A stretch of DNA of 64,000 nucleotides from Chiloscyllium plagiosum (taxonomy: Eukaryota), in NCBI RefSeq assembly GCF_004010195.1, contig NC_057718.1, positions 8,662,494-8,726,493 of the forward strand, written 5' to 3'. Position 1 is the stretch's first letter; every line of letters starts with the position of its first letter. This document shows, piece after piece, positions 3,216 to 63,610 of the stretch. The position numbers and the translations under genes are program-made. Below the pieces are notes generated by a model. That model worked only from the letters and a program-made list of their open reading frames with translations. It was not told the origin of the DNA and made no database searches.

Positions 3216-3428
3216 ATCGATTTGGAGATGCCGGTGTTGGACTGTGGTGGACAAAGTTAAAACTTGCACAACACCAGGTTATAGTCCAACAGATTTAATT
3301 GGAAGCATTAGCTTTCAGAGCGACGCTCCTTCATCAGGACAATCACTTGATGAAGGAGCAGTGCTCCGAAAGCTTGTGATTCCAAATAAACCTGTTGGAC
3401 TATAAGCTGGTGTTGTGTGATTTTTAAC
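3216..3428. mobile_element. PLE family B fold-back terminus with two opposed HHR-like motifs
   Basis: Inverted arms (ACAACACCAGGTTATAGTCCAACAG / CTGTTGGACTATAAGCTGGTGTTGT) converging on GATGAAGGAGC..GCTCCGAAAGCT; flanked by ATCAGGA. Confidence 0.75.
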
Positions 3429-3656
3429 AATCAGGAGCACCATTCTTTGAAACGTGGCTGGAGAACTTCCAACCCTGAGTGGCCCAACACTTGTATAACT
3501 TGGCTGGAGTTACGAGGGTGAAAGTTTCTTTCACACGGGCTGTCAGGGGAACCTGCCAGAATCATAGAATCCCTACAGCATAGAAACAGGCCATTCGGCC
3601 CAACAAGTCCACATCGACCCTCTGAAGAGTAACCCACCCAGACCTATATTTACTTA

Positions 3657-3863
3657 TGGAGAAAGTGAGGACTGCAGATGCTGGAAATCAGAGCTGAAAA
3701 ATATGTTGCTGGAAAAGTGCAGCAGGTCAGGCAGCATCCAAGGAGCAGGAGAATCGACGTTTCAGGCATAGGCCTAAAGAAGGGCTTATGCCTTACACAT
3801 CGATTCTCCTGCTCCTTGGATGCTGCCCGACCTGCTGCGCTTTTCCAGCAACACATTTTTCAG
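3657..3863. mobile_element. PLE family A fold-back terminus
   Basis: ~85-bp inverted arms; CTATATTT duplicated at 3644 and 3864. Confidence 0.8.
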
Positions 3864-4012
3864 CTATATTTGCCCCTGACTAATGCACCTAGGCTACACA
3901 TCCCTGAACACTATGAGCAATTTAGCATAGCCAGTTCACCTAACCAGCACATCTTTGGACTGCGGGAGGAAACCGGAGCACCTGGAGGAAATCCATGCAG
4001 ACATGGGGATAA

Positions 4013-4269
4013 TTAGATTACTTACAGATTAGATTACTTACAGTGTGGAAACAGGCCCTTTGGCCCAACAAGTCCACACCAACCCGCCGAAGCGCAACCC
4101 ACCCATACCCCTACATTTACCCCTTTAACCTAACACTATGGGCAATTTAGCATGGCCAATTCACCTGACCCGCACATCTTTTGGACTGTGGGAGGAAACC
4201 GGAGCACCCGGAGGAAACCCACGCAGACACGGGGAGAATGTGCAAACTCCACACAGTCAGTCGCCTGAT
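4013..4269 (-). mobile_element. Young 5'-truncated HE1-type SINE
   Basis: V-domain with intact CpGs, (TAATC)-like tail; head missing beyond TCAGGCGACTG. Confidence 0.85.
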
Positions 4270-4548
4270 TCCGGCTTCGGGATGGCCACGCCCCCTGGAT
4301 CTGCTCCCGCTCCTTCCGGAAGCAGCTCGTAAGCCCCGCCTCTGGGAGCCAAACCTCTTTCCTCCAAGCGCACCAAACCCCGCCCTTTCGCCACGGACTC
4401 CGCGCGAGTCAAGACCACGCCCCCTGCCCGCATGCGCAACCGCCCACAAAGCCGCGCGCCTCCAGGCTCGACGCGCGCACCGCCCGCTGACCCGGACCGC
4501 TGCTGAGTCCTTCATCTTTTAGAAGGGGTTGCAGGTTTCAGTTCATCA
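4270..4548. promoter_or_regulatory. CpG-island/promoter-like fragment
   Basis: About 29 CpG in 4270-4500; GC/KLF boxes CCACGCCC and CCCCGCCC, ETS CCGGAAG, NRF1-like CGCATGCGC. Confidence 0.5.
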
Positions 4549-5145
4549 ATGTTGAAACTCCACACAGACAGTTGCCCGAGGCAGGAATTGAACCCAAGTC
4601 CCTGGCACTGTGAGGCAGCAGTGCTAACCGCCAGTCTTCCTCCAGTAAATCCATCTTGGTAATGTAGCAGACTTGCCCTACCTTCTCTCTGTCTCTCGGC
4701 AACCCTCCAGCTGATGTATTGGGTCAGTTCTGGTCATTGTAATAACTTCATTCATGGTAGTTAACTGTCCAGCTTGGCTGTGAGCACAATAGGGAGCTCC
4801 AGCTCTGCCTGTGAGGCTCTGTTTGTTGGTGCTCCAGCCTGTGGCTAAGCTCCTCCCAAACCTGGGCCAGCCTTTCAGGGTCTAGCCAATAGGAATGTTG
4901 CATTATGGGAGGGGTCTCTCCCACATCAAGTCAAGATAGAAAGCTCCAGCTTGGCATGTCTCTGCACAAGATCCTGAGAGCCATCTCATTAAGTCTGCTC
5001 ACTGTTCTGCACTGAGACCAGCAAATAAGGAGACCCAGTTTGCGACCATTTCTGTATTATTTAGTCGAGTAGTAGAGGGCTCAATGTGGTCCTTGCTCAT
5101 GTCATCCCCACTGATGCTCTCATCCTCTCGGTCAGCGATAATGGG

Positions 5146-5295
5146 TGGGTGGCACGGTGGCACAGTGGTTAGCACTGCTGCCTCACAGCGCCAGAGACCT
5201 GGGTTCAATTCCCACCTCAGGTGACTGACTGTGTGGAGTTTGCACATTCTCCCGTGTCTGCGTGGGTTTCCTCCAGGTGCTCCGGTTTCCTCTCA
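5146..5295 (+). mobile_element. HE1-type SINE, 5' half
   Basis: GGCACGGTGGCACAGTGGTTAGCACTGCTGCCTCACAG head and V-domain. Confidence 0.85.
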
Positions 5296-5903
5296 GTGTG
5301 GGGTCTTTTAAATGCTGGAGAAAAGTTTTGGCTAACCAGGCTGAAGGATTTTCTGTTTGCAGAAAATGTCCCCTCAGCTCCCTACTTACCGAGCTACTGT
5401 GGCCATAGATTGTGGGAGCATCCAGCCATGGAGAATGCTGGACTCTTTCTCCTGTAGTTGCTCAGCCTTCCTCATCTCACCTCACTGGGCCCCTCAAAGA
5501 TCATCGCGGGTACTATTATCTTTGATCCCAGTAGTTCATTACTGAGCCCAGGTTGATTCCATCCATGGGCAGAATGGGGAGGAATCCCACAGTGACAGCA
5601 CAAGGGTTGCATCCTACGTGGACCTGGTAAAGGGAGATGGGAGGTGGGCATGTCTCCTCCCTCAATCTCCTTTACTGCCAGTTTGGCAGTCGTGCACACT
5701 CTGAAGGGAAAGTCATTTCTTCTGCTAGCAGGAGAGACTGATCATCCTCACTATCTCTTAGTATCTCAACAGACTTTCTCATCCTATCCTGGGGAAATAA
5801 GGCCATTTTTCCCTTGGAAACAAAATCCTACTATCTCTCAGACAGCACCTTTCAAACCTGTGGCCTCTCCCATCTAGAGAAGGACAAGGGCAGCAAGTAC
5901 ATG

Positions 5904-6246
5904 AGTCAAGATTAGTGTGGTGCTGGAAAAATACAGCAGGTCAGGCAGCATCCGAGGAGCAGGAAAATCGATGTTTCAGGCAGGAGCCCTTCATCAGGAA
6001 TGAGATTGAAGGAGCAGATTGCCCATCTCCCTTAACCAGGGTCACCTGTGGTGCAACCCTTGTGCTGTGACTGTGGGATTCCTCCCCATTCTGCCCATGG
6101 ATGGAATCGACCTCATTCCTGATGATGGGCTCCTGCCCGAAATGTCGATTTTCCTGCTCCTCGGATGCTGCCTGACCTGTTGCGTTTTTCCAGCACTACT
6201 CTAATCTTGACTCTAATCTCCAGCATCTGCAGTCCTCATTTTCGCC
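5904..6246. mobile_element. PLE family A fold-back with ~110-bp captured local DNA in the loop
   Basis: Inverted arms ~5904-6004 and ~6112-6212; 13-bp TSD CAGCAAGTACATG (5891-5903, 6247-6259). Confidence 0.85.
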
Positions 6247-6765
6247 CAGCAAGTACATGGGAATAGCACCAATTATAAGTTCCCCACCAAACCACTCACC
6301 ATCCTGGTTTGGAAATATATTACTGTTTCTTTAGCATCACTGGGTCAAAATTCTGGAATTCCCTCCCCATGGGCATTGTGTGTCCAAAATAGAGGAAGAC
6401 GAAACAATGATCTCATTCAACGTAATAGCACTGTTCACCTCCATCAACATCGACCTGGCAAAGGAAACACTTACCACACTTTTAGAAGAGACCATCACAC
6501 ACACCCCAACCACCATCAATCACATTACCAAAAAAAACATCATGAAGCTAGTGGGCCTGAGCCTCACCATCCACTTCACCTTCAACAACATAATCTACAA
6601 ACAAACCAACGGCACACCCATGGGATCTCCACTATCAGGATTCATAGCAGAAGCGGTAATGCAAAGACTAGAACAAACAGCCCTACCAACCATCAAACCA
6701 AAAATCTGGGTCCGCTACGTAGATGACACCTTTGTCATCACAAAACGAAACAAGATAGAAGAGAC

Positions 6766-7290
6766 NNNNNNNNNNNNNNNNNNNNNNNNNNNNNNNNNNN
6801 NNNNNNNNNNNNNNNNNNNNNNNNNNNNNNNNNNNNNNNNNNNNNNNNNNNNNNNNNNNNNNNNNNNNNNNNNNNNNNNNNNNNNNNNNNNNNNNNNNNN
6901 NNNNNNNNNNNNNNNNNNNNNNNNNNNNNNNNNNNNNNNNNNNNNNNNNNNNNNNNNNNNNNNNNNNNNNNNNNNNNNNNNNNNNNNNNNNNNNNNNNNN
7001 NNNNNNNNNNNNNNNNNNNNNNNNNNNNNNNNNNNNNNNNNNNNNNNNNNNNNNNNNNNNNNNNNNNNNNNNNNNNNNNNNNNNNNNNNNNNNNNNNNNN
7101 NNNNNNNNNNNNNNNNNNNNNNNNNNNNNNNNNNNNNNNNNNNNNNNNNNNNNNNNNNNNNNNNNNNNNNNNNNNNNNNNNNNNNNNNNNNNNNNNNNNN
7201 NNNNNNNNNNNNNNNNNNNNNNNNNNNNNNNNNNNNNNNNNNNNNNNNNNNNNNNNNNNNNNNNNNNNNNNNNNNNNNNNNNNNNNNNNN
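6766..7290. other. Assembly gap (other gaps: 11221-11238, 19320-19819, 45537-45599)
   Basis: Run of N. Confidence 1.
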
Positions 7291-7414
7291 TCCACATATC
7301 AACCCCTCAGAAAATGAACAGGAAATGACATCACCACAAACCCCAGGAACCCCATCCAGGACAAACATATAAATAGAAAGCAGGAGACAACAGCTTTGCT
7401 TCACTTGGAGGTCG

Positions 7415-7454
7415 CCACTGATGATGTTACCTAGCCAGGTAATGAAACGTCTGG
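7415..7454 (+). ncRNA. Minimal type I hammerhead ribozyme (family C)
   Basis: CCA-CTGATGA-T-GTTACC(TAGCCA)GGTAAT-GAA-ACGT-C-TGG: intact core, stem I CCA/TGG, stem II, palindromic ACGT stem III, GUC site. Confidence 0.8.
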
Positions 7455-7706
7455 ATATCAAACCTACAGCTCAGCGAGCAAACTTACACCCTAAACCTCA
7501 ACCTGAGCTACAAACCTTCACAAACCTTGCATTGTGTGTCTATATACAGCACATGGACAACAGTGGTTCAAGAGGGCAGCTCACTACATTCTCAAGGGGT
7601 AACAAGGGGTGTACCCAAATAGCGATGTCCATAGCCCATAAATTAATTATTTAAAATATTAGAATGGATCTTAGGGCAACACCTTCAAGAAAATTACATT
7701 ACCATT

Positions 7707-7786
7707 GTTGAAACTTTATTGCTGGAACAGCACAGCAGGTCAGGCAGCATCTAGGGAACAGGAGATTCGACGTTTCGGGCACAGGC
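7707..7786 (-). mobile_element. PLE family A terminal fragment between ~65-bp direct repeats
   Basis: GCTGGAACAGCACAGCAGGTCAGGCAGCATC...CGACGTTTCGGGC; 7633-7700 repeated at 7787-7855. Confidence 0.75.
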
Positions 7787-8189
7787 AGCCCATAAATTAA
7801 TTATTTAAAATATTAGAATGGATCTTAGGGCAACACCTTCAAGAAAATTACCATTACTGTTGGCATCATGTACACAGGAGGCAGTGGGGTGGCGGGTAAA
7901 ACCACTGGGCTAGTAATCCAAACCCACTCCCCTCAATGCTGCCCACCCACCACCCCACCCCCCCACCACCCCAGGTTAATCCTTAAAGGAATGGGTTTAA
8001 ATCCCACCCGACCAAATGGTTAAAGTTTGAATCCATTAAAATTCTGGAATTAAAAAACAAATGTTATGGCTATTGTGTAACCATTGGTAAAAACCCATTT
8101 GGCTCATTAATGCCCTCTAATGAAGGAAATTTGCCAAACCCACCTGGTCTGACTGAACCAGAACAAAATCAAAAACAGCAAGCAGACGA

Positions 8190-8585: not shown

Positions 8586-8776
8586 ATGATTTGGAGATGC
8601 CGGTGTTGGACTAGGGTGTACACACACAGACACAAAGACCCACATGCACACATATACATATACATATACGTTTGTGCGGTGAATTTGTACTTGCAGAGTT
8701 ATATTGTACTTTGTTCAAAAACTGCATGAATTCATGTAAAACTCTGTTACCACCTGGTGTTGTGTGATTTTTAACA
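8586..8776. mobile_element. PLE family B terminal fragment with inverted end
   Basis: ATTTGGAGATGCCGGTGTTGGACT start and CTGGTGTTGTGTGATTTTTAAC end, shared with 3216-3428. Confidence 0.6.
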
Positions 8777-10355: not shown

Positions 10356-10465
10356 AAAACACCAGCCCAACTTTGGCACTAAAGTACCCGGAGTGGGTTA
10401 GAGCCCATAACCACATCACTCCAGCTGAGATGATTGACTCAGTTGGCTGGACAGCTGGTTGTTTA

Positions 10466-11866
10466 GATCAGAATGGTGCTGATAAGGCATAGCAGGCCAG
10501 GCAGCATCCGAGGAGTAGGAAAATCGACGTTTTGGGCAAAGGCCCTTCATCAGGAATAGAGGCAGGAAGCCTCCAGGGTGGAAAAATAAATGGGGGAGGT
10601 GGGGCTGGGGAGAAGGTAACAAAGAGTACAATAGGTGAAAGGGGGTGGAGACAGAGGCGATAGGTCAGAGAGGAGGATGAGGGAAGGTAGCATAGAGTAC
10701 AATAGGTAAATGTGGGTGGGGATGGGGTAAGGTGGAGGAGGGGAAATGACGAAACTGGTGAAGTCCACATTGATGCCCTGGGGTTGAAGTGTTCCGAAGC
10801 GGAAGGTGTTTTTCCTCCAGGCGTCGGGTGGTAAGGGACCGGTGGTGGACGCGGCCCAGGACCTGCATGACCTCGGCACAATGGGGGTCGGAGTTGAAAT
10901 GTTAGGCCATGGGGTAGTGGTGTTGATTGGTGCGGGTGTCCCGGAGATGTTCACTGAAGTGCTCTGTGAGAGACATCCAGTCTCCCCAACGTAGAGGAGA
11001 CCGCATCGGGAGCAACGGATACAATAAATGACATTGGTGGAGGTGCAGGTAAAACTTTGATTCATGTGGAAGGCTCCTCTGGGGCCTTGGATGGAGGTGA
11101 GGGAGGAGGTGTGGGCGCAGGTTTTGCAATTCCTGAGGTGGCAGGGGAAGGTGCCAGGATGGGAGGGTGGGTTGTAGGGGGGCGTGGACCTGACCAGGTA
11201 GTCACGGAGGGAACAGTCTTNNNNNNNNNNNNNNNNNNTATATGCGAAGGCTGGTAGGGTGGAAGATGAGCACCAGGGGCGTTCTGTCCTTGTTACGGTT
11301 GGAGGGGTGGGGTCTGAGGGCGGAGGTGCGGGATGTGGACGAGGTGCGTTGGAGGGCATCTTTAACCACCTGAGAAGGGAAATTGCGGTCTCTAAAGAAG
11401 GAGGCCATCTGGTGTGTTCTGTGGCGGGACTGGTCCTCCTGAGAGCAGATACAGTGGAGGCAGAGGAATTGGGAATGCAGGATGGCATTTTTGCAGGAGG
11501 TAGGATGGGTAGAGGTGTAGTCCAGTTAGCTGTGGGAGTCAGTGGGTTTGTAAAATATGTCAGTGTCAAGTCAGTCGTCATTAATGGAGATGGAGAGGTC
11601 CAGGAAAGGGAGAGAGGTGTCAGAGATGGTCCAGGTGAATTTAAGGTCAGGGTGAAATGCGTTGGTGAAGTTGATGAACTGCTCAACCTCCTCGTGGGAG
11701 CATGAGGTGGCGCCAATGCAGTCATCAGGAGGAAGAGGTGGGGAGTAGTGCCAGTGTAACTACAGAAGATGGACTGTTCTACGTAGCCGACAAAGAGACA
11801 GGCATAGGTGGGGCCCATGCGAGTGTCCATGGCTACCCCTTTGATCTGGAGGAAGTGGGAGGATTG
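10466..11866 (-). mobile_element. Penelope-like element family A (Neptune-like): RT C-half, Cys cluster, GIY-YIG endonuclease, HHR-bearing terminus; frameshifted
   Basis: HFLQIKGVAMDTRMGPTYACLFVG, CHLRNCKTC, CTSTNVIYCIRCSRCGLLYVGET; terminus 10470-10560 matches the fold-back arms. Confidence 0.9.
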
Positions 11867-12554
11867 CAATGGAGTGTGATGCCAACAATGCAGGTTCAAA
11901 TCCTGCACTGGCTTACCATGAAGGACTCTCCTTCTCAATCTCTCCCCTCACCTGAGGTGGGGTGACCCTCAGGTTAACCACCATCTGTCATCTCTCTCTC
12001 GTGACGGAATGGGACTAGGGTGACTTTACCTTTTTAGCAGGATGGTGGCAAAGTCCCACACATGTGGATAAGAATGTCCTACCCTGGAGGGTCATTGGCT
12101 CATTGGAGGCCCATGGTGCTGGGCCTAGGCCTGGGTCACCACTTGGGAGTCTCTCCACCTAGCAGGCTGGTGGGGTGGAAGGAGAATGGGGCAAAGGGTT
12201 TGAGCAACTGGAGCTTGAGAGATCCTGAGGGAGAGGGAAACCTGCGGGGTAGGGGGAAATGAGCGTGAAAGCTTGTTGTGATGGGGTTGGGAGGGGGAAA
12301 TCTCTGATGGGCCCAGGGAGATGCCCCCACTGCTTGGTATCTCCATGTACTGGGAAAGATGACTGTCTAGGAAGTTGGTGCCACTCATTAAATCTGGATG
12401 GCAGTGCATAGAGGGCCCCATGGGAATAGGTTGGGTATGGGGGGGCACTGGGTGGGTGCGGGTTGGGGGCGCTGCACACCACAAGTGGGCCACCATTGAC
12501 ATAATTACAATGTGACTCAGGCACAGCAACTAGTTCACTGGCTCCCTGATGTGC

Positions 12555-14545: not shown

Positions 14546-14688
14546 CACCCTCCATTCATTCAGGTGCACAGCCTAACTAAGCAGCCTGACTTATGCCATG
14601 ATTTGGAGTTGCCGGTGTTGGACTGGGGTGTACAAAGTTAAAAATCACACAACACCAGGTTATAGTCCAACAGGTTTAATTGGAAGCA

Positions 14689-14723
14689 CACTAGCTTTCG
14701 GAGCGACGCTCCTTCATCAGGTG
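14689..14723 (-). ncRNA. Minimal hammerhead ribozyme (family B) in a PLE terminus at 14617-14728
   Basis: CAC-CTGATGA-A-GGAGC(GTC)GCTCC-GAA-AGCT-A-GTG: intact core, stem I CAC/GTG, palindromic AGCT. Confidence 0.8.
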
Positions 14724-14797
14724 GTAGTCATTGACTTACGCCAATTCTTCTTGTGCCTGAGGTCAGATCGTGTTTGTTTGTTTAATTGTGTCTGTAG

Positions 14798-27924: not shown

Positions 27925-28442
27925 GGGCGGCATGGTGGCTCTGTGGCTAGCACTACTGCCTCACATTGCCAGGGACCCAGGTTCGATTCCAGCCTCAGGT
28001 GACTATCTGTGTGGAGTTTGCACATTCTCCCTGTGTCTGAATGAGACCCCAACAGGTGTTCTGGCTTCCTCCCACAGTCCAAAGATGTGCAGGTTAGGTG
28101 AATTGGCCATGCTAAATTGCCCATAATGTTCAGAGATATGTAGGCTAGATGCATTAGCTGAAAAATGTGTTGCTGGAAAAGCGCAGCAGATCAGGCAGCA
28201 TCCAAGGAGCAGGAGAATCGATGTTTTGGGCATAAGCCCTTCTTCAGGATGCTGCCTGACGTGCTGCGCTTTTCCAGCATCACATTTTTCAGCTCTGATC
28301 TCCAGCATCTGCGGTCCTCACTTTCTCCTAGGTGCATTAATCAGGGGTAATGTAGAGTAATAGGGGCAAGGGAATGTGTCTGGTGGGTTGGTGTGAATTT
28401 GTTGGCCAAATGGCCTGTTTCCACACCATCAGGATTCTATGA
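27925..28442 (+). mobile_element. HE1-type SINE containing a PLE fold-back
   Basis: Head and V-domain, tail resumes after 28328. Confidence 0.85.
28157..28327. mobile_element. PLE family A fold-back
   Basis: Inverted arms; TSD CTAG(A/G)TGCATTA at 28145 and 28328. Confidence 0.8.
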
Positions 28443-30714: not shown

Positions 30715-31980
30715 GCATGGGAATGGGATAGCGTGTTGGAATGGATAGAAAAATTGATGAGCAGACAGAAAAGGAAAGGTGGAAAATAATGGACCTCTTT
30801 GTGAATTGTAGGCAGTGAGTAGTGGGATACCCAGGGATCAGTACCAGGTATCCAGCTAATGATAAAATATGTTCATGAGTTAGGGGAGGGAACTAAATGT
30901 CATATCCCCAAATTTACAGATGACACAAAGCTGGATGGGAGGATGCAGAGAGGTTGCACTGTGATTCGGGCAGGCTGAGGGAGTAGGCAAATGCATGGTG
31001 ATGCAGCATAACGTGGGTAAATGTGAGAGCATCCACTTCGGTAGCAACAGTAGGAAGGTTGCAAATAAGAAAGAGGGAACTGTTCAATGAGATTTGGGTG
31101 CCCTCATCCAGCGATAGGCAGTAAGGAAGGTAAGCAGTATACTGGCCTTCGTCGCAAGAGGATTTGGGTGCAGGAACAAGGCCACCTTGCTGCAGTTATA
31201 CAGGGTATTGGTGTGGCCACACCTGGAATATTGCATGCAGTTTTGGTCTCCTTATCTGAAGAAAGGTGTTGTTATAGAGGGAATACCGCAAAGGTTTCTC
31301 AGACTGATTCCTAAGTTGTGTGTGGTGCTAGAAAAGCACAGCAGGTCAGGTGGCATCCAAGGAGCAGGAGAGTTGACGTTTTGAGCATAAGCGCCTCATC
31401 ACGAATGCTCAAAACATCTGTTCTCCTGCTCCTCGGATGCTGCCTGACCCGCTGCGCTTTTCCAGCACCACACTCTTTGACTCCGATCACCATCATCTGC
31501 AGTCCTCACTTTCTCCTGACTCTGGGATGGCAGCACTGGCTGATGAGGAGAGATTGAGTTGGTTATTATTATGTACACTGATGTTCAGGACAATGAGGAT
31601 GGATATCATAAAAACCTGTCAAATTCTAACAGGTATGGGCAGGTCAGATGCAGGAAGCATGGTCCCAAAGATGGGGGACTCGAGAACTAGGGAGAAGCAT
31701 AATTTAAAGATAAGGTATAAAACTTTTAGCATGGAGATAAGCAGATATTTCTTCACTCAGATAGTGGTGAGCCTGTGGAATTCTCTGCCACCGAAAGTAG
31801 TTGAGGTCAAAACATTATCTGTGTTCAAGAAGGAGGTAGATATAGCTCCAGTGGTTAAAGGGATGAAGAGATATGGAAGAGGGTGGAATTAGGGTAGTGA
31901 GCTCGATGATTAGCCATGATCATATTGAATGGTGGAGCAGGCGTGAGGAGTCAAATGGCCTACTCCTGCTCCTATCTTAC
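30715..31980 (+). mobile_element. Old CR1 ORF2 3' half with a PLE fold-back at 31313-31515
   Basis: FTDDTKL, LQLYRVLVWPHLEYCMQFWSPYL, FFTQIVVSLWNSLP; inverted arms inside. Confidence 0.85.
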
Positions 31981-41033: not shown

Positions 41034-41565
41034 CTGGATGTAGGTTTTCATTTTCATTCGTTTTGTCACCATACTAGGTAACATTAGACAAACAGGCAGA
41101 AAACTAGCCACCAGGATACATGAACATCAACTAGCCACAAAATGACATGACCCTCTCTCACTAGTATCCTTACATACAGATGAGGAAGGACACCACTTTG
41201 ACTGGGACCATGCATCCAACCTAGGACAAGCCAAACAGAGACACATGAGAATTCCTAGAATCATGACATTCCAATCAGAACTCTATCAACAAACACATTG
41301 ATTTGGAACCCATTTACCACCCCCTGAAAAAAGAACAGGAAATGACATCACCATAGGAAATGACATCACCACAGGAAATGACATCACCAACCCAAATAAA
41401 CGTAATCATTAAATAGAAAGCAGGAATCATCAGCAGTGCTTCGTCCAGAGGCTCACCGAAGATGTTACTAGTATGGTCATGAATCGTCTGAAAATGAACC
41501 TTCAGCTCAGTGAGCAAACCAGCATTCAGAATCTCAACGTGAGCTACAAATCTTCTCAAAGCTCA
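41034..41565 (+). mobile_element. PLE family C 3' end (GIY-YIG C-half plus terminus) with an inverted terminus piece at its 5' side
   Basis: GRKLATRIHEHQLATK; degenerate HHR ~41455-41492; inverted piece ~41034-41085; TSD ATAAAT(A/G)TGAAT at 41022 and 41566. Confidence 0.8.
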
Positions 41566-42331: not shown

Positions 42332-42547
42332 GTTTTGAAAAATGTGGTGCTGGAAAAGCACAGCAGGCCAGGCAGCATCCAAGGAGTAGGAGATTCGACG
42401 TTTTGGGAATAAGCCCTTCTTCAGGAAGAAGGGCTTATGCCCGAAACATCGATTCTCCTGCTCCTCGGATGCTGCCTGGCCTGTTGTGTTTTTCCAGCAC
42501 CACATTTTTCAACTCTGGTCTCCAGCGTCTGCAGTCCTCACTTTCTC
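42332..42547. mobile_element. PLE family A fold-back inside a CR1 fragment
   Basis: Inverted arms; perfect 15-bp TSD CTGAAGAGATTACAT (42317, 42548). Confidence 0.85.
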
Positions 42548-42880
42548 CTGAAGAGATTACATACTTACCCTAAAGAGAGTATAGCTGACACCTGGGATGG
42601 TAGGACTGTCATATGATGAGAGATTGATTGACTGGGCCTGTCTCACAAGGTTGAGAGGTAATCTGATTAAAAAGCATAAAATTCTAATAGGACTGGACAG
42701 AATAGATGCAGAGAGGATATTTACTTTTCCTGGGTGGGGAGTCTCAAACCAGGGGAGACAACCTCAGGATATTGAGTAGGTCACTTAGCACTGAGATAAG
42801 GAGAAATGTCTTCACTCAAAGGTTGAAAGCCGCTGGAAGTCTGCCACAGAAGGCTGTAGAGAATGGGTTACTGAGCGTAT

Positions 42881-47628: not shown

Positions 47629-48420
47629 GGAGAAAGTGAGGGCTGCAGATGCTAGAGATTAGAGCTGAAAATGTGTTGCTGGAAAAGCGCAGCAGGTCAG
47701 GCAGCATCCAAGGAACAGGAGGATCGACGTTTCGGGCATAAGCCCTTCTTCAGGAATGAGGAAAGTGTGTCCAGCAGGCTAAGATAAAAGGTAGGGAGGA
47801 GGGACTTGGGGGAGGGGCTTTGGAAATGCGATAGGTGGAGGGAGGTCAAGGTGAGGGTGATAGGCCGGAGTGGTGATAGGCCACCTACTTGCGGAACATT
47901 TCAGAGAACACCTCTGGGTCACCCGGACCAACCAACCCAACCACCCCGTAGCTCAACACTTTAAATCCCCCTCTCACTCCACCAAGGACATGCAGGTCCT
48001 TGGACTCCTCCATCGCCAGACCATGGCAACATGACGGTTGGAGGAAGAGCGCCTCATCTTCTGCCTGGGAACCCTCCAACCACAAGGGATGAACTCAGAT
48101 TTCTCCAGTTTCCTCATTTCCCCTCCCCCCACCTTGTCTCAGTCAAATACCTCGAACTCAGCACCGCCTTCCTAACCTGCAATCATCTTCCTGACCTCTC
48201 CGCCCCCACCCCACTCCGGCCTATCACCCTCACCTTGACCTCCCTCCACCTATCGCATTTCCAAAGCCCCTCCCCCAAGTCCCTCCTCCCTACCTTTTAT
48301 CTTAGCCTGCTGGACACACTTTCCTCATTCCTGAAGAAGGGCTTATGCCCGAAACATCAATTCTCCTGCTCCTTGGATGCTGCCTGACCTGCTGCGCTTT
48401 TCCAGCAACACATTTTCAGC
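47629..48420. mobile_element. PLE family A insertion with ~215-bp inverted termini around an endonuclease fragment
   Basis: Arms ~47662-47873 and ~48209-48421; perfect 14-bp TSD TCATAAGAATTTGG (47615, 48421). Confidence 0.9.
47722..47757 (-). ncRNA. Minimal hammerhead ribozyme (family A), core intact
   Basis: ATTC-CTGAAGA-A-GGGC(TTAT)GCCC-GAA-ACGT-C-GAT; opposite-strand copy at 48327-48362. Confidence 0.75.
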
Positions 48421-48969
48421 TCATAAGAATTTGGCTCAGGAAAACAGCTCTCATGTCAAAGGAGATAGACTAATGATCTTGGCCACCTCATAGACATATT
48501 TTCAAACAATATGCCACACCTTTGGAGCTGCTCGGAACCTGTGCCTCCTGGCCAAGAAGTAGAGACACTACCATTGTGCCAAAACAGACCTTATCATTTA
48601 GCTTGTACCATAAGACCATAAAACAGAGAAATTAGGCCATTCAGCCCATTGATTCCACTCCACCATTCAATCATGGCTGATATGTTTCTGAACACTAGTC
48701 TTCCACTTTCTCCCCGTAACCTTTGATCCCCTTGACAATCGAGAACCTATCTATCTCTGTTTTAAATATCCTCAGTGACTTGGCCTCCACAGCCTTCTGT
48801 GGCAGTGAACTCCACAGATTCACCCCTCTCTGGCTGAAGAGGTTTCGCCTTATCTCCGTTCCATAGGATCTTCCCTTTATTCTATTAATGTGCCCTCAGG
48901 TCCTTGTCTCTCCTGCCAATGGAAACATCTCCCCAACCTCCACTCTCTCCAGGCTGTTCGGTATTCAGT

Positions 48970-49333
48970 CAAGATTAGAGTGGTGCTGGAAAAGCACAGC
49001 AGATCAGGCAGTATCCGAGGAGCAGGAAAAATCGATGTTTCAGGCAAAAGCCCTTCATCAGGAAGAGCTGAATTCCTGATAAACAGCTTTTGCCCAAAAC
49101 ATCGATTTTACTGCTCCTCAGATGCTGTCTGACCTGCTGTGCTTTTCCAGCACCACTCTAATCTAGACTCTAATCTCCAGCATCTGCAGCAGGAAGAGCT
49201 GAATTCCTGATAAAGAGCTTTTGCCCAAAACGTCGATTTTACTGCTCCTCAGATGCTGCCTGACCTGCTGTGCTTTTCCAGCACCACTCTAATCTAGACT
49301 CTAATCTCCAGCATCTGCAGTACCCACTTCTGC
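48970..49333. mobile_element. PLE family A fold-back with tandemly duplicated right arm, inside a CR1 3' end
   Basis: One left arm, two right arms; 16-bp TSD CTGTTC(G/A)GTATTCAGT (48954, 49334). Confidence 0.85.
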
Positions 49334-49719
49334 CTGTTCAGTATTCAGTTAGTATCAATTAGATCCCCCCCCTCATCCTTCTAAGTTCCATCATATATAG
49401 TCCCAGAGTCCTCAAATATTCCTCAGGTGTTAAACCTTTCATTCTCGGGAACATTCTCATGAATCTCCCTTTCACCGTTGTGCAACAAATACCTGCTCAT
49501 TTAAAATACAAGGCATTTCCCATTAAGACTCTCCAGTGATTTTCTTTTACCATCATCATCCAAATAGGCCCTTCGGCCCACTTAGAGAAAGAGAATGGTG
49601 CCAGCATACACACCAATCATGAGCTAATAGCATTGGCATCACAACACAAGCATCAGGTACTGCAGCCAATGTATAGCAAACCAGGGTATGAATCCAGTGC
49701 TCCACCAAGGGGTAGTTTT

Positions 49720-50035
49720 TATTTACTCATGGGGCATGGATGGCAGTGGCTGGGACAGCATTTATTCCCCATCTCTACTTACCCTGGAGAAAGTGGTGAT
49801 GAACTGCCTTCCTGAAACACTACAGTCCATCTACTGTAGGTATATTCCACCACGCCAATAGGGAGTGAATTCCAGGGTTTTGACCCAGTGACAATGAAAG
49901 AACAGCGAATTATTTCCCAGTCAGGATGGTGAGTGTGTTGGAGAGGAACTTGCAGTTGGGGGTGTTCCCACATATCTGCTGACCTTGTTCTTCTAGATGG
50001 TAGTGGCCATGGGTTTGGAAGGTGCTGTCTGAAGA
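49720..50035 (-). mobile_element. 3' end of an old non-LTR element family (also ~5875-7610 interrupted, ~16580-16815)
   Basis: Shared CAAGTTCC..TCCAA.C.ACTCACCATCCTG..T.GGAAAT..GGGTCAAAA block in several copies. Confidence 0.6.
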
Positions 50036-50071
50036 TCTAGCTTAGTTGCCTCTTTCTTTTGATCGTCTTAC

Positions 50072-50120
50072 GTTTGCCTCCTGTTGTCCTGTAGTCTGAG
50101 CACCAGTGTTGGGCGTGATG
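50072..50120 (-). CDS. Candidate 49-nt exon (ITPNTGAQTTGQQEAN in phase 2-0)
   Basis: aattctgaattcag| acceptor, AAC|gtaaga donor; all three frames open. Confidence 0.4.
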
Positions 50121-50322
50121 CTGAATTCAGAATTGCCAATGGTACATTCTTGATTATTTCCACCTTTATTTCAGCTCTGAACTGTTACCATCCTGGGAAA
50201 AATACTCGAAGGTTAGTGAAAGGATGGAGGCTTTCTTCTAACACACTGGACCAAGCAGGTCCTTTAGATCCCAACCTCAAAGGAGGTTGGTGGCAATCAA
50301 CCAGCTTTCTGGTAATCAGTTA

Positions 50323-50554
50323 GGAAAAAGTGTGGACTGCAGATGCTGGAGATCAGAGTCGCAAGCGTGGTGCTGGAAAAGCACAGCAGGTCAGGCAGCA
50401 TCAGAGGAGCAGGAGAATCAACGTTTCAGGCAGGAGTCCTTCATCAGGAATAGAGGCCTCATTCGTGATGAAGGGCTTATACCCGAAACATTGATTTTCC
50501 TACTCCTCAAGTGCTGCCTGACCTGCTGTGCTTTTCCAGCAAGACGCTGTTGAC
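50323..50554. mobile_element. PLE family A fold-back
   Basis: Inverted arms; 16-bp TSD TTCTGGTAATCA(G/A)TTA (50307, 50555). Confidence 0.85.
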
Positions 50555-52157
50555 TTCTGGTAATCAATTATTCAACCAGCCTATACAACATGGTGAGCAG
50601 TGTTAAGGGTTCACTAGATAATGCATGCCTCAGTCCCTGTCTTGACTTGAAAACCCTGCTGGTTGCCCCAGTCAAGAACTACAGAAAAACTAGAGTTAAA
50701 TCATAAAATCTCCCCCAGTAGAGATTTTTGATTGAAGAAGCCAGCTAACAATCTCAGCTGCAGAAAGGAACAACGTAGGTGACAAGAGAATCATCCAAAT
50801 CATAGAGATGTACAGCACAGAAACAGACTCTTCAGTCCAACCTGTCCATGCCAACCAGATATCCTAAATTAACCTAGTCCCATTTGCCAGCATTTGGCCC
50901 ATATCCCTCAAAATCCTTTCTATTCATGTACCTATCCAGATGCCTTTTAAATGTTGCAATTGTACCAGCCTCCATCACTTCCTCTGGCAGCTCATTCCAT
51001 ACAGACACCACCTTCTATGTGAAAATGGTCTCTTTCGTATATTTCCACTCTCACTTTAAACCTATGCCCTCAAGTTTTGGACTCCCCTCTACTGGGAAAA
51101 AAGCCTTTGGCTATTCATCATATCTATGATTTGAAAACTTCTATAAGGTCACCGCTCAGCCTCCAGCACTCCAGGGAATAGCCCCAGCCTATTCAGCCTC
51201 TCCCTACAGCTCAAATGGTGGGACTCTGGTGTATTCCCACCCTTGCAACTGTTGATCCTCATTGATAATGGAGGTAGTGGCAGGGTTTTAGATTAGATTC
51301 CCTACAGGGTGGAAACAGGCCCTTTGGCCCAACAAGTCCACACCGACCCGCTGAAGACTAACCCATCCCCCTCTGACTAATGCACCTAACAGCTTTGGAC
51401 AATTTAGCATGGCTAATTCACCTGACCTGCACGTCTTTGGACTGTGGGAGGAAACCGGAGCACCCAGAGGAAACCCACGCAGACACAGGGAGAATGTACA
51501 AACTCCACATAGACAGTCACCCGAGGCTGGAACTGAACCTGGCGCTGTGAAGCAGCAGTGCTAACCACTGAGCCATCATACCAAATGACCTCCTTGGAGT
51601 GCTATAGCGCTTCTTTGATTCCTTAATTATTAAATTTGAATTTTACATGGGATATGGGTATCTCTGGTAAGGCCAGCATTTGTTGTCCATCTCTAATTAC
51701 CCATAAACTGAGTGCTTTGCTATGATCTTTTCAATGGGCAGTTAACAGCCAGACCCATTACTGTGGGCCTGGAGTCACACATAGGCCATGTTGGGTAGGG
51801 ATGGGAGGTTTCCTTCTGAAGTGAACCAAATGGATGTCAAACTGCTATTCCTGAAATCAGCTTTAAATTCCAGATTATTTTGAATGCTACCAGCTGCCTT
51901 GTTCCAGTTTGATCCAGGCTCTCTAATCAGAGAGTCCATTGTACATCTCTAGCACAGGTGGGAATTGAGCCTGGATCTCTTGGCTCAGAGATAGGGACAC
52001 TACCTCAGTAGCCCCCACCCAGTGATTAGATTTCTTACGGTGTGGAATCAGGCCTTTTGGGCCAACAAATCCACACTGACCCTTCGAAGACCCATTCCCC
52101 CCTGACTAATGCACCTCACACTATGGGCAGTTAGCATGGCCAATTCGCCTGGCCTGC

Positions 52158-53251: not shown

Positions 53252-53433
53252 CTGGAACGAACACAGGAACAGAAGAGAAATACAGAACTCAAGAAACAAG
53301 GCCAGGAATAGTCTATTGAGTTTGCTGCAGAAGGCAATATGATCATAAGAACTTAACAACATTAGAAATAAGCGGTCATCTGGCCTGCTCCGCCATTCAA
53401 TAAGATCATGGCCTATCTTTTTGTGGACTCAGG

Positions 53434-53562
53434 CGAAAGTGAGGACTGCAGATGCTGGAGATTAAAGTCGAGAGTGTGGTGCTGGAAAAGCACAACAGGT
53501 CAGGCTGCATCCGAGGGGCTGGACAATCGACCTTTCTGGCTAAAGCCCTTCACCAGGAAGGC
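53434..53562 (-). mobile_element. PLE family A single terminus
   Basis: Perfect 15-bp TSD TTTTGTGGACTCAGG (53419, 53563). Confidence 0.85.
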
Positions 53563-54701: not shown

Positions 54702-57700
54702 CAATAGACAATAGACAATAGGTGCAGGAGTAGGCCACTCTGCCCTTCGAGCCAACACCACCATTCGTTATGATCATGGCTGATCATCCTCAATCAGTAT
54801 CCTGCTCCTGCCTTATCCCCATAACCCTCGATTCCACTATCCTTAAGAGCTCTATCCAACTCTTTCTTGAAAGTATCCAGAGACTGGGCCTCCACAGCCT
54901 TCTGGGGCAGAGCATTCCATACACCCACCACTCTCTGGGTGAAGAAGTTTCTCCTCAACTCTGTTCTAAGTGGCCTACCCCTTATTTTTAAACTAAGTGG
55001 CCTACCCCTTATTTCAGGACTCACCCATCAGTGGAAACATGCTTCCTGTCTCCAGAATGTCCAATCCTTTAATAATCTTATACGTCTCAATCAGATCCCC
55101 TCTAAACTCAAGCGTATACAAGCCCAGTCGCTCCAATCCTTCAGCGTAAGATAGTCCCGCCATTCTGGGAATTGACCTCGTGAACCTACATTGCACTCCC
55201 TCAATAGCCAGAATGTCTTTCCTCAAATTTGGAGACCATAACTGTGCACAATATTCCAGGTGTGGTCTCACCAGGGCCCTGTACAGCTGCAGAAGGACCT
55301 CTTTGCTTCTATACTCAATTCCTCTTGTTATGAAGGCCAGCATGCTATTAGCTTTCTTCACTGCCTGCTGTACCTGCATGCTCGCTTTCATTGACTGATG
55401 TACAAGAGCACCTAGATCTCGTTGCACTGCCCCTTTACCTAACTTGACTCCATTTAGGCAGTAATCTGCCTTCCTGTTCTTGCCACCAAAGTGGATAACC
55501 ACACATTTATCCACATTAAACTGCATCTGCCATGCATCTATCCACTCACCTAGCCTGTCCAGGTCACCCTGTATTCTCCTAACATCCTCCTCACATTTCA
55601 CCCTGCCACCCAGCTTTGTGTCATCAGCAAATTTGCTAATATTACTTTTAATAAATTCATCTATATCATTAATGTACATTGTAAAAAGCTGCGGTCCCAG
55701 CACTGATCCCTGCGGCACACTATTGGTCACCGCCTGCCATTCCGAAGGGAAGCCATTTGTCACTACTCTTTGTTTCCTGTCAGCCAACCAATTTTCAATC
55801 CATGTCAGTATTTTGCCCCTAATACCATGTGCCCTAATTTTGCTCACTAACCTCCTGTGTGGGACTTCATCAAAAGCTTTCTGAAAGTCCAGGTATACTA
55901 CATCCACTGGATCTCCCCTGTCCATCTTCAGAGTTACATCCTCAAAAAATTCCAGAAGATTAGTCAAGCATGATTTCGCCTTCATAAATCCATGCTGTCC
56001 CTGACCTATCCTGTTACTGTTATCTAGATGTGTCATAATTTCATCCTTTATAATTGACTGCAGCATTTTTCCCACCACTGAGGTCAGGCTAACCCGTCTA
56101 TAATTCTCTGTTTTCTCTCTCCCTCCTTTCTTAAAAAGTGGGACAACATTAGCCACCCTGAATCTATAGAACATTGGAAAATGATCACGAATGCATCCAC
56201 GATTTCTAGAGCACCTCCTTCAGTGCCCTGGGATGTAGACCATCAGGTCCCAGGGACTTATCAGCCTTCAGACCTAACAGTCTCTCCAACACCTGGCAAA
56301 TATAAATTCCCTCAGTTCAGGTCCTTCAGCCACTATTACATCTGGGAGATTGATTAGATTAGATTACTTACAGTGTGGAAACAGGCCCTTCGGCCCAACA
56401 AGTCCACCCCGACCCTCCGAAGAGCAACCCACCCAGACTCATTCCCCTACATTTACCCCTTCATCTAACATTATGGGCAATTTAGCATGACCAATTCACC
56501 TAACATGCACATTTTTGGACTGTGGGAGGAAACCGGAGCACCCGGAGGAAACCCACGCAGACACGGAGAGAATGTGCAAACTCCACACAGACAGTTGCCT
56601 GAGGTGGGACTTGAACCTGGACCTCTGGCGCTGTGAGGCAGTAGTGCTAACCATTGTGCCACTGTGCCGCCCATTGCTCGTGTCTTCCCCAGTGAAGACA
56701 GATCTAAAGTACCAATTCAACTCTTCTGCCATTTCTTTGTTCCCCATAATAAATTCACCCGTTTCTGTCTTCAAGGGCCCAATTTTAGTCTTAACCATTT
56801 ATTTTCTTTTATATACCTAAAAAAGCCTTTACTATCCTCCTTTATATTTTTGGCCAGTTTACCTTCGTACCTCATTTTTTCTTTGCATATTTCCTTTTTA
56901 GTTATCCTCTTTTGTTCTTTAAAAGCTTCCCAGTCCTCCGTTTTCCCACTTATCTTTGCTATGTTATACTTTTTCACTTTTGTCTTTATATGGTCCTTAA
57001 CTTCCCTCATTCGCCACGGCCACCCCTGCCTCCTCTTAGGATCTTTCTTCCTTTTTGGAATGAACTGCATTATACCCAGAAATACCTGCCATTGTTGTTC
57101 CACTGCCATCCCTGCTAGGGTATTGCACCATTGAACTTTGGCCAGCTCCTCCCTCATAGCTCCATAGTTCCCTTTATTCAACTGAAATATTGTCACTTCC
57201 GATTCTACCCTATCCCTTTCAAACTGGAGATCATTATATTGTGGTCACTACCTCCTAATGACTCCTTTACTTCAAGATCCCTGATGTGTTGCACAACACC
57301 AGATCCAGAATTGCCTTCTCCCTGGTCGGCTCCAGCACCAGCTGTTCTAAGAATCCATCTCGGAGGCACTCCACAAACTCCCTTTCTTGGGGTCCAGTAC
57401 CATCCTGATTCTCCCAGTCCACCTGCATGTTGAAATCCCCCATAACAACTGTAGTAATATCTTTGCGACAGGCCAATTTCAGCTCCTTATTCAACTTACA
57501 CACTACATCCAGGCTACTGTTTGGGGATCTGTAGATAACTCCCATTCGGGTCTTTCTACCCTTAGAATTTCTCAGTTCTATCCATACTGACTCTACATCC
57601 CCTGATTCTAGGTCTCCCTGTGCAGGGGACTGAATATCATTCCTTACCAACAGGACCACCCCACCCCCTCTGCCAGTCAGTCTGTCCTTACGATAGCACG

Positions 57701-60926: not shown

Positions 60927-61715
60927 ATTTTAAATGATTGAAATGTAAGATGTGAGGAAGAATTTGGCCAAGAAACTCTAAGTAAAATATTTAGTTCACT
61001 CATAAAAAAACCTCATGTACCATTGATGGCATTTAGTGCCATTGGCAGGGCAGAAAGTGAGGGCTAAATATGCATTCTACAGTCCTTGGCATCTCCCATT
61101 CTATACCTGGTAGGACTATTGAAGTAACCGGAATCTGGCAGCCATGTGTTATGCTGCCCAACCCACATTCTGAATTAGGATATCTGTTTCTAAGATCAGG
61201 AATAGAGATCTTATTGCATTGCTGGAATTGATAACAAAGTGATTAAAATTTATATAAAAGATCTACCTGTATCCTGTGCGATCCTGAGATTTTAACATCC
61301 ATCACAAAGGCCATCTTCCAGTTTTGTAAAATGACCTTCCTCTGTCCTGGCTTCAGTGCAACTGCTGATGAAATACCAACCTGGGTTTCGCTAACTTGTC
61401 TATTCCAAGTTGCTTCTCGTTCCCAATTTCCGACCTTCTAAACCTCAGTTTATCCTATACCTTATTCTGAACTAAGTCCCATTTGCCTGACAATACAGAT
61501 TGAACGTTTCCATTATTGTGTTCAAATTCCTTCACAATACATTTTTGTAAACTCTTCCTGCCTTACCACAAGCTAACAGCTCTGTCTTCCTTCACCTCTG
61601 GACTTTTGTATATGTTTCACCTCACTGCCGTTGGGCATATCTTAAACCATCCAAACCGTAAGCTGTGGAAAGCCTCCACTAAACCTCTCCCCTTCCTTAC
61701 CACCGTGCTACCAAG

Positions 61716-62016
61716 GGCAGCACGGTGGTACAATGGTTAGCACTGCTGCCTCACAGCACCAGGATCCCAGCCTCTGGTGACTGTCTGTGTGGAGTTTGCA
61801 CGTTCTCCCTGTGTCTGTGTGGGTTTCCTCCGGGTGCTCCGGTTTCCTCCTAAAGTCCAAAATATGTGCAGGTTAGTGAATTGGTCATGCTAAATTGCCC
61901 ATAGTCAAGGGTGAATATGGGGAATGGGTCTGGGTGGGTAACTCTTCGGAGGGTCGTGTGGACTTGTTGGGCCGAAGGGCCTGTTTCCACACTGTAGGGA
62001 ATCTAATCTAATCTAA
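61716..62016 (+). mobile_element. HE1-type SINE
   Basis: Head, V-domain, (CTAAT)n tail. Confidence 0.9.
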
Positions 62017-62737
62017 TGACCATGTTTTCCTTCATGAAGATGTTTCTTTGGACAATCTCTTCAGCCAACTGTTTTGTCTCCCTTCCCAATATCATTTGTT
62101 CTCCCTGGTGTCAAATCTTCCATATCTCCTGGGAATTTGCCATAGAAATGTTGTTATCTGTGCATTTTCAACCACCAAATAATTAGCCACAACATCCACA
62201 TTTTAGAGTTACTCACTTTCCTGAGAGATATGATTACGTCCTATTTACATACAGAAGGCTTCCTTTCCAAGTTAAATTTGATAAACCTTTGTAATGAATT
62301 TGTGAGAGCATTTATTGAACATTTTGAAAACTCAAACAATTGCTTGTATCAAATTTAAAATTGAGGCTGAAATGATGACTTTTCAAATAAGGAAAAGCAA
62401 TTAAAGGATGTGACTTGCGCTCCTCTGACAAAGGGGAAGGAAGGCTTAACATTTATATTGTGGTGTTCTGAAATGATGTTTTTTTTTAAAGAAAATGACA
62501 ACCTGGAAACCCTTAATTGATTTTTTTTTACGGCCATTTTTGTGTGTCTTGGGCCCACAGTCAAACATTTGCATCACTACACATTTACATATATTTTCCA
62601 AATTCTAAAAGTTTGAAATGAAGATAATCTGAAAAATCACAAAGCTGACCCTAATCCTGATGCAGAAACAATGGCCTTGATGGGGTATGAATGGTGAACC
62701 ATCTCCGACCCAATCAGCACAGCATCCAGCCAATTAC

Positions 62738-62753
62738 CTGGGTACTGAACTGG
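62738..62753 (-). CDS. Candidate 16-nt microexon (or 63-nt exon from 62800)
   Basis: ttggcag| acceptor, CAG|gtaatt donor. Confidence 0.3.
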
Positions 62754-62856
62754 CTGCCAACAAATCGTTCGGCAAAATCACTTGCATAATGGGACCCTAG
62801 CTGAGAGCAACATTCCCAGTTATAATCTAATCGAATTGGAATAAACTATTTGTTAC

Positions 62857-62893
62857 CATATTTGGAGCCCTGAGCAACTGGACCGATAAGGTG
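62857..62893 (-). CDS. Candidate 37-nt exon
   Basis: ccttgttcattcag| acceptor, ATG|gtaaca donor; all three frames open. Confidence 0.35.
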
Positions 62894-63443
62894 CTGAATG
62901 AACAAGGTCTGGATTGGATTCCTTTTTCCCTTTCTTTTGTCACCCAACTTGGAATGGTTGGAATCATGACTGTCGATTTTGATGACACAGGTCGAATTAT
63001 ACAGACGACAAAGCAACCAGAAATGTTTGAAAGAACTCAGCACAATGCTGCCGTCTCCAGAAAAGTAGATAAATCGAATGTCTATATCTTAAATCAACTT
63101 GATGACTAAATCAACAGCACCACCAAATCCAGCTGAAAACCAGCCTTTGAAGAGCTGTACGTTTACTGGAATTGAAATCATATAACCTATCCTCCCATTT
63201 TGTAATCTATTTGTGTGTGGCATGTGTATGTTTAGATGTGTGTATCTGCATCTAGGTGTATGTATGTGTTTGTGTGAGTGTGGATGTGTATATATGTATA
63301 CACATGTGCCTGAGTGTGTGAATGTATGTTTATACAGGTATGGGGTGTTTGTGTATGTGTAGTTGAATGTATGTGTGAATGTATCCATGTTTGTATACGT
63401 GTGTACAAACGTTGTATGTTATATATCATGCCATGGAGGTACT

Positions 63444-63610
63444 GATGCTGGACCAGGGTCGACATAGTCAGAAGTCACACGACTCCAGGTTATAGTTCAA
63501 CAGGTTTATTTGAAATCACAAACTTTCGGAGCGCTGCTCCTTCATCAGATGAAGCCTTCCGAAAGCTCGTGATTTCAAATAAACCTCTTGAACTATAAGC
63601 TGGTGTCATA
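63444..63610. mobile_element. PLE family B fold-back
   Basis: Inverted arms meeting at CTTTCGGAGC..GCTCCTTCATCAG / CCGAAAGCT. Confidence 0.7.

Follow-up and report, generated by a model that had tools for sequence, protein, structure and literature searches.

Fold-back insertions of Penelope-like elements in Chiloscyllium plagiosum as probable by-products of double-primed integration

How does the end of a retroelement come to lie, again and again, beside an inverted copy of itself? The question is raised by a stretch of 64,000 nucleotides of Chiloscyllium plagiosum (NCBI RefSeq assembly GCF_004010195.1, contig NC_057718.1, positions 8,662,494 to 8,726,493 of the forward strand; hereafter the window), in which short insertions derived from Penelope-like elements (PLEs) consist of a terminus with a minimal hammerhead ribozyme motif and an inverted copy of that terminus. 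An earlier sequence-only reading had listed eleven such fold-back mini-insertions from three PLE families. It offered two explanations, a non-autonomous hairpin element mobilised by the reverse transcriptase (RT) and GIY-YIG endonuclease of PLEs, or a snap-back of reverse transcription at the ribozyme. Our analysis speaks against both. We regard these stubs as probably dead-on-arrival products of ordinary Penelope-like integration, in which both ends of the cut target would prime reverse transcription, the enzyme would run off the 5' end of the RNA and repair would join the two cDNAs (probability roughly 0.6).

All eleven listed insertions proved to be two-armed, and alignment separated them into three families as proposed, with eight sites in family A, two (3216 and 63444) in family B and one (41034) in family C. 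Local inverted repeats were returned at nine of the eleven sites by a self-BLAST of the window; the two arms of 41034 and 47629 were seen by alignment to natural copies and not by self-BLAST. These two are long copies rather than mini-insertions and extend into the endonuclease region (41034-41565, arms of about 50 and 480 nt; 47629-48421, arms of 245 and 549 nt), and the tail-less arm of 47629 has 337 nt that are missing from its partner. Moreover, a twelfth two-armed insertion absent from the first list was found at 8586-8775. Every one of the eleven pairs a tailed with a tail-less arm whose 3' ends lie about 33-38 nt apart, in agreement with the shortening of about 35 bp that had been described for one arm. 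Positions within the elements are given below on the element sense strand and are counted from the first C in the core of the ribozyme (C3 = 0). The landmarks of family A on this scale are a predicted cleavage site after +27, a tail-less end near +90 and a tailed end near +124.

Besides the window, the sequence material comprised 20 random 10-kb loci, 30 loci retrieved with a query from family A and 20 short loci of family C; the loci of the family A query are biased, as the tailed arm had to reach about -1. We tabulated 36 gap-free pairs by hand and left out 11 of 47 because of assembly gaps or later insertions. All 36 combine one tailed and one tail-less arm, and 35 distinct junctions were found among them. 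For 42332 the 39 best matches show identities of 86-93% and length differences of -11 to +16; their lengths take 20 values, each in at most five copies. One to five variants are common to both arms in 13 of 20 pairs, and these sets differ between insertions, while in 17 of 20 pairs the arms of one insertion are at least as close to each other as the median arm elsewhere. Since junctions and lengths vary and insertion-specific variants occur on both arms, each insertion was made anew and both of its arms come from one source. Independent formation, which had been proposed earlier, is thus upheld. A non-autonomous hairpin element of fixed structure copied from master loci would account for the very high copy number and for the joints that recur in up to 27 contigs, but it does not fit the differences in junctions, lengths and variant sets or the same pattern in three unrelated families, and we consider it highly improbable. 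In their short hairpin shape and their target-site duplications (TSDs) the stubs also resemble foldback DNA transposons and miniature inverted-repeat transposable elements (MITEs). Assignment to the MITE class was rejected, because MITEs have fixed ends, symmetric termini and a fixed TSD length, whereas the stubs have neither a fixed junction nor a fixed length and carry a tail on one arm.

TSDs of 12-16 nt with at most one mismatch flank seven of the eleven listed insertions (5904, 28157, 41034, 42332, 47629, 48970 and 50323). The earlier range of 12-16 bp does not extend to the other four, as 3216, 3657 and 31313 have duplications of only 7-8 nt and no TSD was found at 63444. Compared with random site pairs, of which 1 in 290 reached a score of at least 10, the TSDs are above chance. 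Duplications of at least 10 nt were found at 32 of the 42 two-armed insertions tested in the window and the sampled loci; those of family A (n = 26) measure 10-17 nt, with a median of 14 nt and 69% A+T. These duplications also count against an assembly artefact, for which the short-read style gaps at many hairpin centres could be cited. In addition, the arms differ by 0-10% in the pairs measured and in length, and fold-back joints occur in contigs of two DNA runs, where joints of -6 to +8 (one +57) to -4 to +1 make up 10 of the 15 joints listed (3,976 more exist). By a 31-letter rule, the right junction of 50323 is spanned by one contig, which comes from a DNA run that carries the label of another organism; the contigs at the other window junctions fell short of this rule. 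Taken with the arms and TSDs, the chance of an artefact appears negligible. The gaps start at or near the stop position described below in L017 (-13), L027 (-6), L049 (-4) and L065 (-15), and the counts are therefore biased against young near-perfect hairpins.

The longer arm is the tail-less one in 15 of the 36 pairs and the tailed one in 12, and in 9 the arms are equal within 3 nt. In the 15 pairs each arm holds sequence absent from its partner, with the tail on one and extra upstream sequence on the other, and therefore neither arm was copied from the other. This bears directly on snap-back, in which one cDNA folds at the ribozyme and copies itself. It is impossible in these 15 pairs, which include six of the eleven listed sites, and the arm-length asymmetry refutes it as a general route. 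The geometry would permit it in the 12 pairs with the longer tailed arm and perhaps in the 9 equal ones, and the overlaps of 2-3 nt that are common at the junctions would suit it. However, single-armed copies share the same stop, arm ends avoid the cleavage site, and inverted microhomology in family A is not richer at -9 to 0 than elsewhere (1.1 versus 0.89), so that we judge snap-back very unlikely. Microhomology as the cause of the family A stop was rejected for the same lack of enrichment.

At the junctions, overlaps of 0-9 nt or fillers were seen, and one arm is often shorter by up to 55 nt. The centre of 5904 holds a 103-nt filler, of which 86 nt match 5556-5641 in inverted orientation (91%); a filler of 67 nt in L043 matches flanking DNA at 90%, and that of L004 was copied from the RT region of the element. 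Fillers taken from flanks or from the RT region point to repair that joins two free ends and to a full-length template. The centres of L033:9105-9355 and L004:1802-1957 consist of element-interior pieces, partly inverted, as if by multiple template jumps. In L042:1512-3152 a family A arm has inserted close to the centre of a long inverted family B pair, the junction of which contains a hairpin of 82 nt. The model does not cover two rarer arrangements, tail-less arms paired tail-to-tail 120 nt apart (L046:4190-4508) and a tailed and a tail-less arm in direct tandem (L002:1476-1722). An older family A-like subfamily makes the same fold-backs (L031, L034, L038 and L048; window 9057 and 36295).

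As had been suspected, the arms do not end at random positions. In the short pairs (n = 26) the longer arm ends between -15 and -1 in all cases and between -8 and -1 in 21. An automated count over the window and the 20 random loci placed 27 of the 44 family A ends in the range -119 to +40 within -9 to 0, compared with 2.8 expected if uniform; the 27 include two doubtful cases, one a duplicate and the other an overlap artefact. The same count gave 4 ends in -119 to -10, and 12 further arms extend past -120. Ends at +45/+46, outside the counted range, mostly belong to the older subfamily without a matching reference and to a tandem repeat. Family A stops mainly at -4/-3 and family B at -8/-9, about 30 nt upstream of the cleavage site (+27/+28). 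Genome-wide exact counts for family A fall from 43,623 at -3 to 33,965 (-4), 24,716 (-5), 11,998 (-10) and 9,829 (-12), which corresponds to losses of 22% at -3/-4, 27% at -4/-5 and then 13.5% and 9.5% per base. For family B the counts are 18,945 (-3), 18,469 (-4), 14,465 (-7), 13,467 (-8), 10,764 (-9) and 8,969 (-10), with losses of 2.5% at -3/-4, 7.8% per base from -4 to -7, 6.9% at -7/-8, 20% at -8/-9 and 17% at -9/-10. All 6 readable local copies that lack C at -5 are genuine ends, and this C is present in all 24 copies that continue. Six of seven single-armed family A copies with a TSD of at least 13 nt start at -3 to -7 and the other at -25; four of these six belong to the biased family A-query set. 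The window also holds, at 7633-7858, a single tail-less arm (7707-7786) with a direct duplication of about 64 nt, compared with the usual TSD of 14 nt.

What role does the ribozyme play in this? The minimal hammerhead (CTGA.GA, helix II, GAAA, NN, TH) was found on the arms by our own pattern scan, whereas an Rfam scan at E<=5 gave 14 matches, all of them sub-threshold and none to a hammerhead family; weak microRNA matches were obtained on four fold-backs. The hammerheads had been described as opposed. The motifs do match on the arms, but most short copies have the whole motif on one arm only. Likewise, the turnaround that had been placed in or beside the motif lies beside it, at its 5' edge, and not at the cleavage site, where 1 of the 72 tabulated ends falls within +24 to +31. 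A turn at the cleavage site was rejected on this count, and on our best reading ribozyme cleavage plays no part in setting the turn. Non-LTR retrozymes (LTR, long terminal repeat) are alike in being non-coding, ribozyme-bearing derivatives of Penelope termini, but they are direct tandem repeats with units set by cleavage (bioRxiv 10.64898/2026.07.22.740005). We rejected this class for the stubs, as their arms are inverted and their ends avoid the cleavage site. An ATG is present in ribozyme loop II (window 48345 and other family A arms), like the start of the anole open reading frame in helix II; in L003 the reading frame from this ATG breaks before the tail.

Core promoters are known for an initiator consensus and for a spacing of about 30 nt between TATA box and start. 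In families A and B alike the stop is the A of a CA. TATAAA is found at -38 to -40 in 6 of 6 long family B copies, 30 nt upstream of the stop, and TTAT at -38 to -33 in 11 of 12 long family A copies, 29-34 nt upstream of the stop. The 4-nt shift of the stop between the two families tracks the promoter motif and not helix I of the ribozyme. These motifs suggest that the pile-up of stops marks the 5' end of the RNA in families A and B. In published PLEs the RNA start has been placed in the upstream repeat (PMC2377424, PMC6765202), and a TATA box with an initiator has been described in the terminal repeat (PMC3846280). Predicted folds of families A and B contained no strong RNA structure just upstream of the stop. 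A spliced leader joined at -4, by analogy with Drosophila virilis, was rejected because the single-armed copies share no upstream sequence. Family C arms of L057, L068 and L046:1182-1719 end at -49, -52 and about -56, at a TATA box, and are too few to judge.

The following sequence of events would account for these observations. The endonuclease would make a staggered cut of about 14 nt, as the TSDs indicate. Both free 3' ends would then prime reverse transcription, one at the end of the tail and the other some 35 nt upstream, at the tail-less start; the template would probably be one RNA, or RNA of one source. With one start at each site the tail would be one-sided, and since the two 3' ends of a staggered cut are each primed on sense RNA, the arms would lie head-to-head inside the TSD. 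The internal start sites would also lie about 90 and 125 nt from the RNA 5' end. Starting at these upstream sites, the enzyme would run off the 5' end as in the synthesis of strong-stop DNA and leave short arms; from the downstream copy of the sites, long and randomly truncated arms would result. The two cDNA 3' ends would be joined by host repair, which the overlaps and fillers suggest to be microhomology-mediated, and priming by one end alone would give a single-armed copy that shares the stop of the short arms. For an anole element, in vitro work has demonstrated two start sites as well as the cutting and extension of both strands, and arm geometry argues for their use here. TSDs, arm geometry, stop positions and fillers are the observations; from them we infer that both ends prime in vivo, that a single RNA serves both arms, that the enzyme runs off, and which repair pathway joins the ends.

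Several points weigh against this interpretation. The family A box is no more than TATA-like, and the promoter of D. virilis Penelope is TATA-less and internal (PMC2377424). The stops show no additional G of the kind that copying of a cap would leave. RNA run X21 (poly(A) single-cell) gave no entries in its table of molecule starts, so the RNA start is a predicted one. The stop is spread over several bases, with some short arms reaching -10 to -15; subfamily variation makes up part of the loss upstream of -5 in family A and at -10 in family B, and two-letter codes at -4, -6 and -8 in the family B patterns hide some ends. In family C a putative start at -15 to -21, with an initiator-like A, showed no step (the loss is 2.2% at -15/-16 and 2.5% for each base as far as -21), and 13 of the 20 copies sampled extend past -119, so that a run-off step is not general. 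The in vitro basis comes from a Poseidon element, a clade other than that of families A and B, which look Neptune-like. Finally, in family A the stop falls where helix I of the ribozyme has its 5' edge.

This last point also favours a rival explanation, in which double priming occurs and the enzyme is halted by the folded ribozyme, or by a protein that occupies it, instead of reaching an RNA 5' end. Families A and B both stop within 10 nt of the core, the three short family C partner arms (L057, L068 and window 41034) end at +1 to +6, and the start to which the stops are compared is predicted rather than measured. On the other hand, family B has no step at the edge of helix I (2.5% at -3/-4, with a two-letter code) and its steps lie at -8/-9, the enzyme has already copied the whole fold when it stops, and in both families the stop keeps a distance of about 30 nt from the TATA-like box. 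Stalling is therefore possible but, in our view, unlikely.

A published proposal for PLEs starts from an antisense transcript that primes itself and forms a hairpin intermediate, the ends of which are trimmed by the endonuclease before integration (PMC3846280). It accounts for the head-to-head orientation, for variants common to both arms and for near-palindromic centres such as those of 50323 and L009. Single-armed copies with the same stop, fillers from the target flank and a stop at a sense-strand initiator are not predicted by it, and sense RNA was target-primed in vitro at both tail boundaries (PMC11167929). We consider this route rather improbable for the stubs and prefer double priming on sense RNA.

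Related reactions are known from other retroelements. In L1 twin priming the second target end also primes, and the two cDNAs copy different parts of the RNA, which results in an inversion without duplication, whereas both arms of the stubs copy the same RNA end. The strong-stop DNA of LTR elements is a short cDNA that ends at the RNA 5' end; it is tRNA-primed and transferred, not integrated. Among PLEs, an inverted 5'-truncated copy together with a tail of 30-40 nt at one end was reported in PMC8557442, where the mechanism was called undefined, and TSDs of 8-10 nt were reported for Adineta (PMC3846280). These complex insertions of endonuclease-bearing (EN+) PLEs (PMC8557442, PMC3846280, PMC2377424) share with the stubs the head-to-head copy, the tail at one end, the TSD, AT-rich targets and a ribozyme motif in the terminal repeat. 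The stubs differ in that their arms are often only 90-130 nt long, that the median TSD is 14 nt and that the ends of the arms are most frequent, upstream of the ribozyme, at a base that depends on the family, a mapping not found in the accessible parts of the published descriptions. For the anole Poseidon element PAc, both strands were cut and extended in vitro, a dimer was predicted, two internal starts bracket the tail and ribozyme mutants still insert (PMC11167929); in the accessible text the inverted copy is not derived from double priming and 5' run-off is not treated. In Schistosoma, minimal hammerheads on opposite strands 100-700 bp apart were ascribed to truncated elements (PMC4209133). 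They are alike in the opposed motifs at short distance, and the accessible text mentions them in one sentence, without analysis of TSD, tail or junction. For Chlamydomonas, insertions with a median length of 128 bp have been described (PMC9977147).

Descent of the fold-backs from EN+ PLEs is supported by coding remains and by form. A family C RT fragment matches PF00078 (E 2.5e-9). The GIY-YIG segment of family A gave E 2.2e-4 against PF01541, with 21.9 bits slightly below the cut-off of 22.6, and the endonuclease motif pair of family B was read by eye, without a Pfam hit. This agrees with the Penelope-like origin and the mobilisation by RT and GIY-YIG endonuclease that had been proposed. The fold-backs also show the minimal hammerhead, the optional tail at one end and the inverted 5'-truncated partner that characterise this group. 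In translation, families A and B carry a cysteine pair motif upstream of the endonuclease and are candidate members of the Neptune clade, for which such a motif is described (PMC8557442). The window copy 10553-11947 gave no Pfam hit, and a PDB search with the family B fragment returned nothing relevant.

According to the sequence-only reading, any read-through transcript would form long dsRNA hairpins within host introns. If made, a transcript of 42333-42549 is predicted to fold at -159 kcal/mol. In RNA run X21, unique flanks in 47400-50700 were nearly empty and no transcript of these loci was seen; the reads are mostly 90-95% alike and continue into other sequence, and therefore come from other copies. 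A>G was the leading change in this run and also in the DNA runs, so it is no measure of editing. No host gene was identified around the insertions.

Table 1. Two-armed insertions, related PLE copies and sequence motifs in the window
Feature	Position	Strand	Arms and remarks	Duplication
Family B fold-back	3216..3431		Tailed arm 3216-3338 (-) ends -1; tail-less arm ~3342-3431 (+) starts -5 to -9	7 nt, 3210-3216/3430-3436
Family A fold-back	3658..3865		Tailed arm to +9; tail-less from -1	8 nt, 3644-3651/3864-3871
Family A fold-back	5903..6247		Tail-less arm to -7; tailed from -8; filler 6005-6107	13 nt
Family C young copy	6335..7530	+	PF00078 RT fragment, assembly gap, tailed end	
Family B two-armed insertion	8586..8775		Tailed arm of 37 nt; tail-less arm longer, internally deleted	No clear TSD
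Family A long decayed copy	10461..11990	-	Translation shows RT-like, CxxC and GIY-YIG-like segments	
Single-armed family B copy, tailed	14598..14726	-	Starts -8/-7	7 nt exact (~11 nt, one mismatch, by eye)
Family A fold-back	28156..28329		Tail-less arm to -2; tailed from +44	12 nt, one mismatch
Family A fold-back	31313..31517		Tail-less arm to -5; tailed from +14	7 nt, one mismatch
Family C two-armed insertion	41034..41565		Inverted tail-less arm 41034-41084 (to +6); tailed 41085-41565 from endonuclease region	12 nt, one mismatch
Family A fold-back	42333..42549		Tail-less arm to -3; tailed from +2; 3-nt overlap	15 nt, 42317-42331/42548-42562
Family A long two-armed insertion	47629..48421		Tailed arm 47629-47873 (to -120); tail-less 47874-48421 (from -457)	14 nt
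TATA-like TTTTATC	48295..48301	+	At -36; putative promoter role	
Initiator-like TCATTCC	48325..48331	+	A at 48327 (-4) is the main family A short-arm stop; predicted start site	
Minimal type I hammerhead motif	48331..48358	+	C3 at 48331; predicted cut after 48358; type according to PMC4209133	
Family A fold-back	48967..49333		Tail-less arm to -3; 7-nt filler; tailed from -4	16 nt, one mismatch
Tandem duplication in fold-back 48970	49064-49329		~130 nt, centre and right arm	
Family A fold-back	50323..50553		Both arms to -8	16 nt, one mismatch
Single-armed family A copy, tailed	53432..53560	-	Starts -3; same stop without fold-back	15 nt
Family B fold-back	63434..63612		Tailed arm to -3; tail-less from ~+18	No TSD found

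Other features of the window lie outside the fold-backs. A short interspersed element (SINE) at 5146 resembles a shark SINE, and the segment 4260-4520 between SINE pieces has 68% G+C and 30 CpG and resembles a CpG island. A long tandem array with repetitive open frames on both strands occupies 20608-23385. An open frame of 401 residues at 55014-56219 was recognised by eye as a LINE-type reverse transcriptase.

The overall pattern of these insertions has already been published; what is new is that snap-back is excluded and that, in two families, the stops are mapped at base level onto a predicted start of the RNA. A literature search covering sources other than subscription papers, Repbase/Dfam notes and supplements found neither a mapping of short-arm ends to a start site nor a derivation of the inverted copy from double priming. 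Two simple routes, the hairpin element and snap-back, are ruled out, and the proposed model gives base-level predictions. We hold it as a tentative view, at a little under even odds, that the stubs record a step of Penelope integration, with a dimeric enzyme, both cut strands, start sites 35 nt apart, one RNA and run-off at its 5' end. If this is true, a single reaction would be enough to explain the inverted copy, the tail on one side and the TSD, and the promoters of extinct families could be placed to the base from the stop positions. Copies would number in the tens of thousands, and any of them could serve as a source if it retains about 40 nt upstream, because initiation would be internal. 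On the present measurements, short ribozyme-bearing hairpins in such genomes are to be annotated as insertion by-products and not as MITEs, retrozymes or microRNA precursors.

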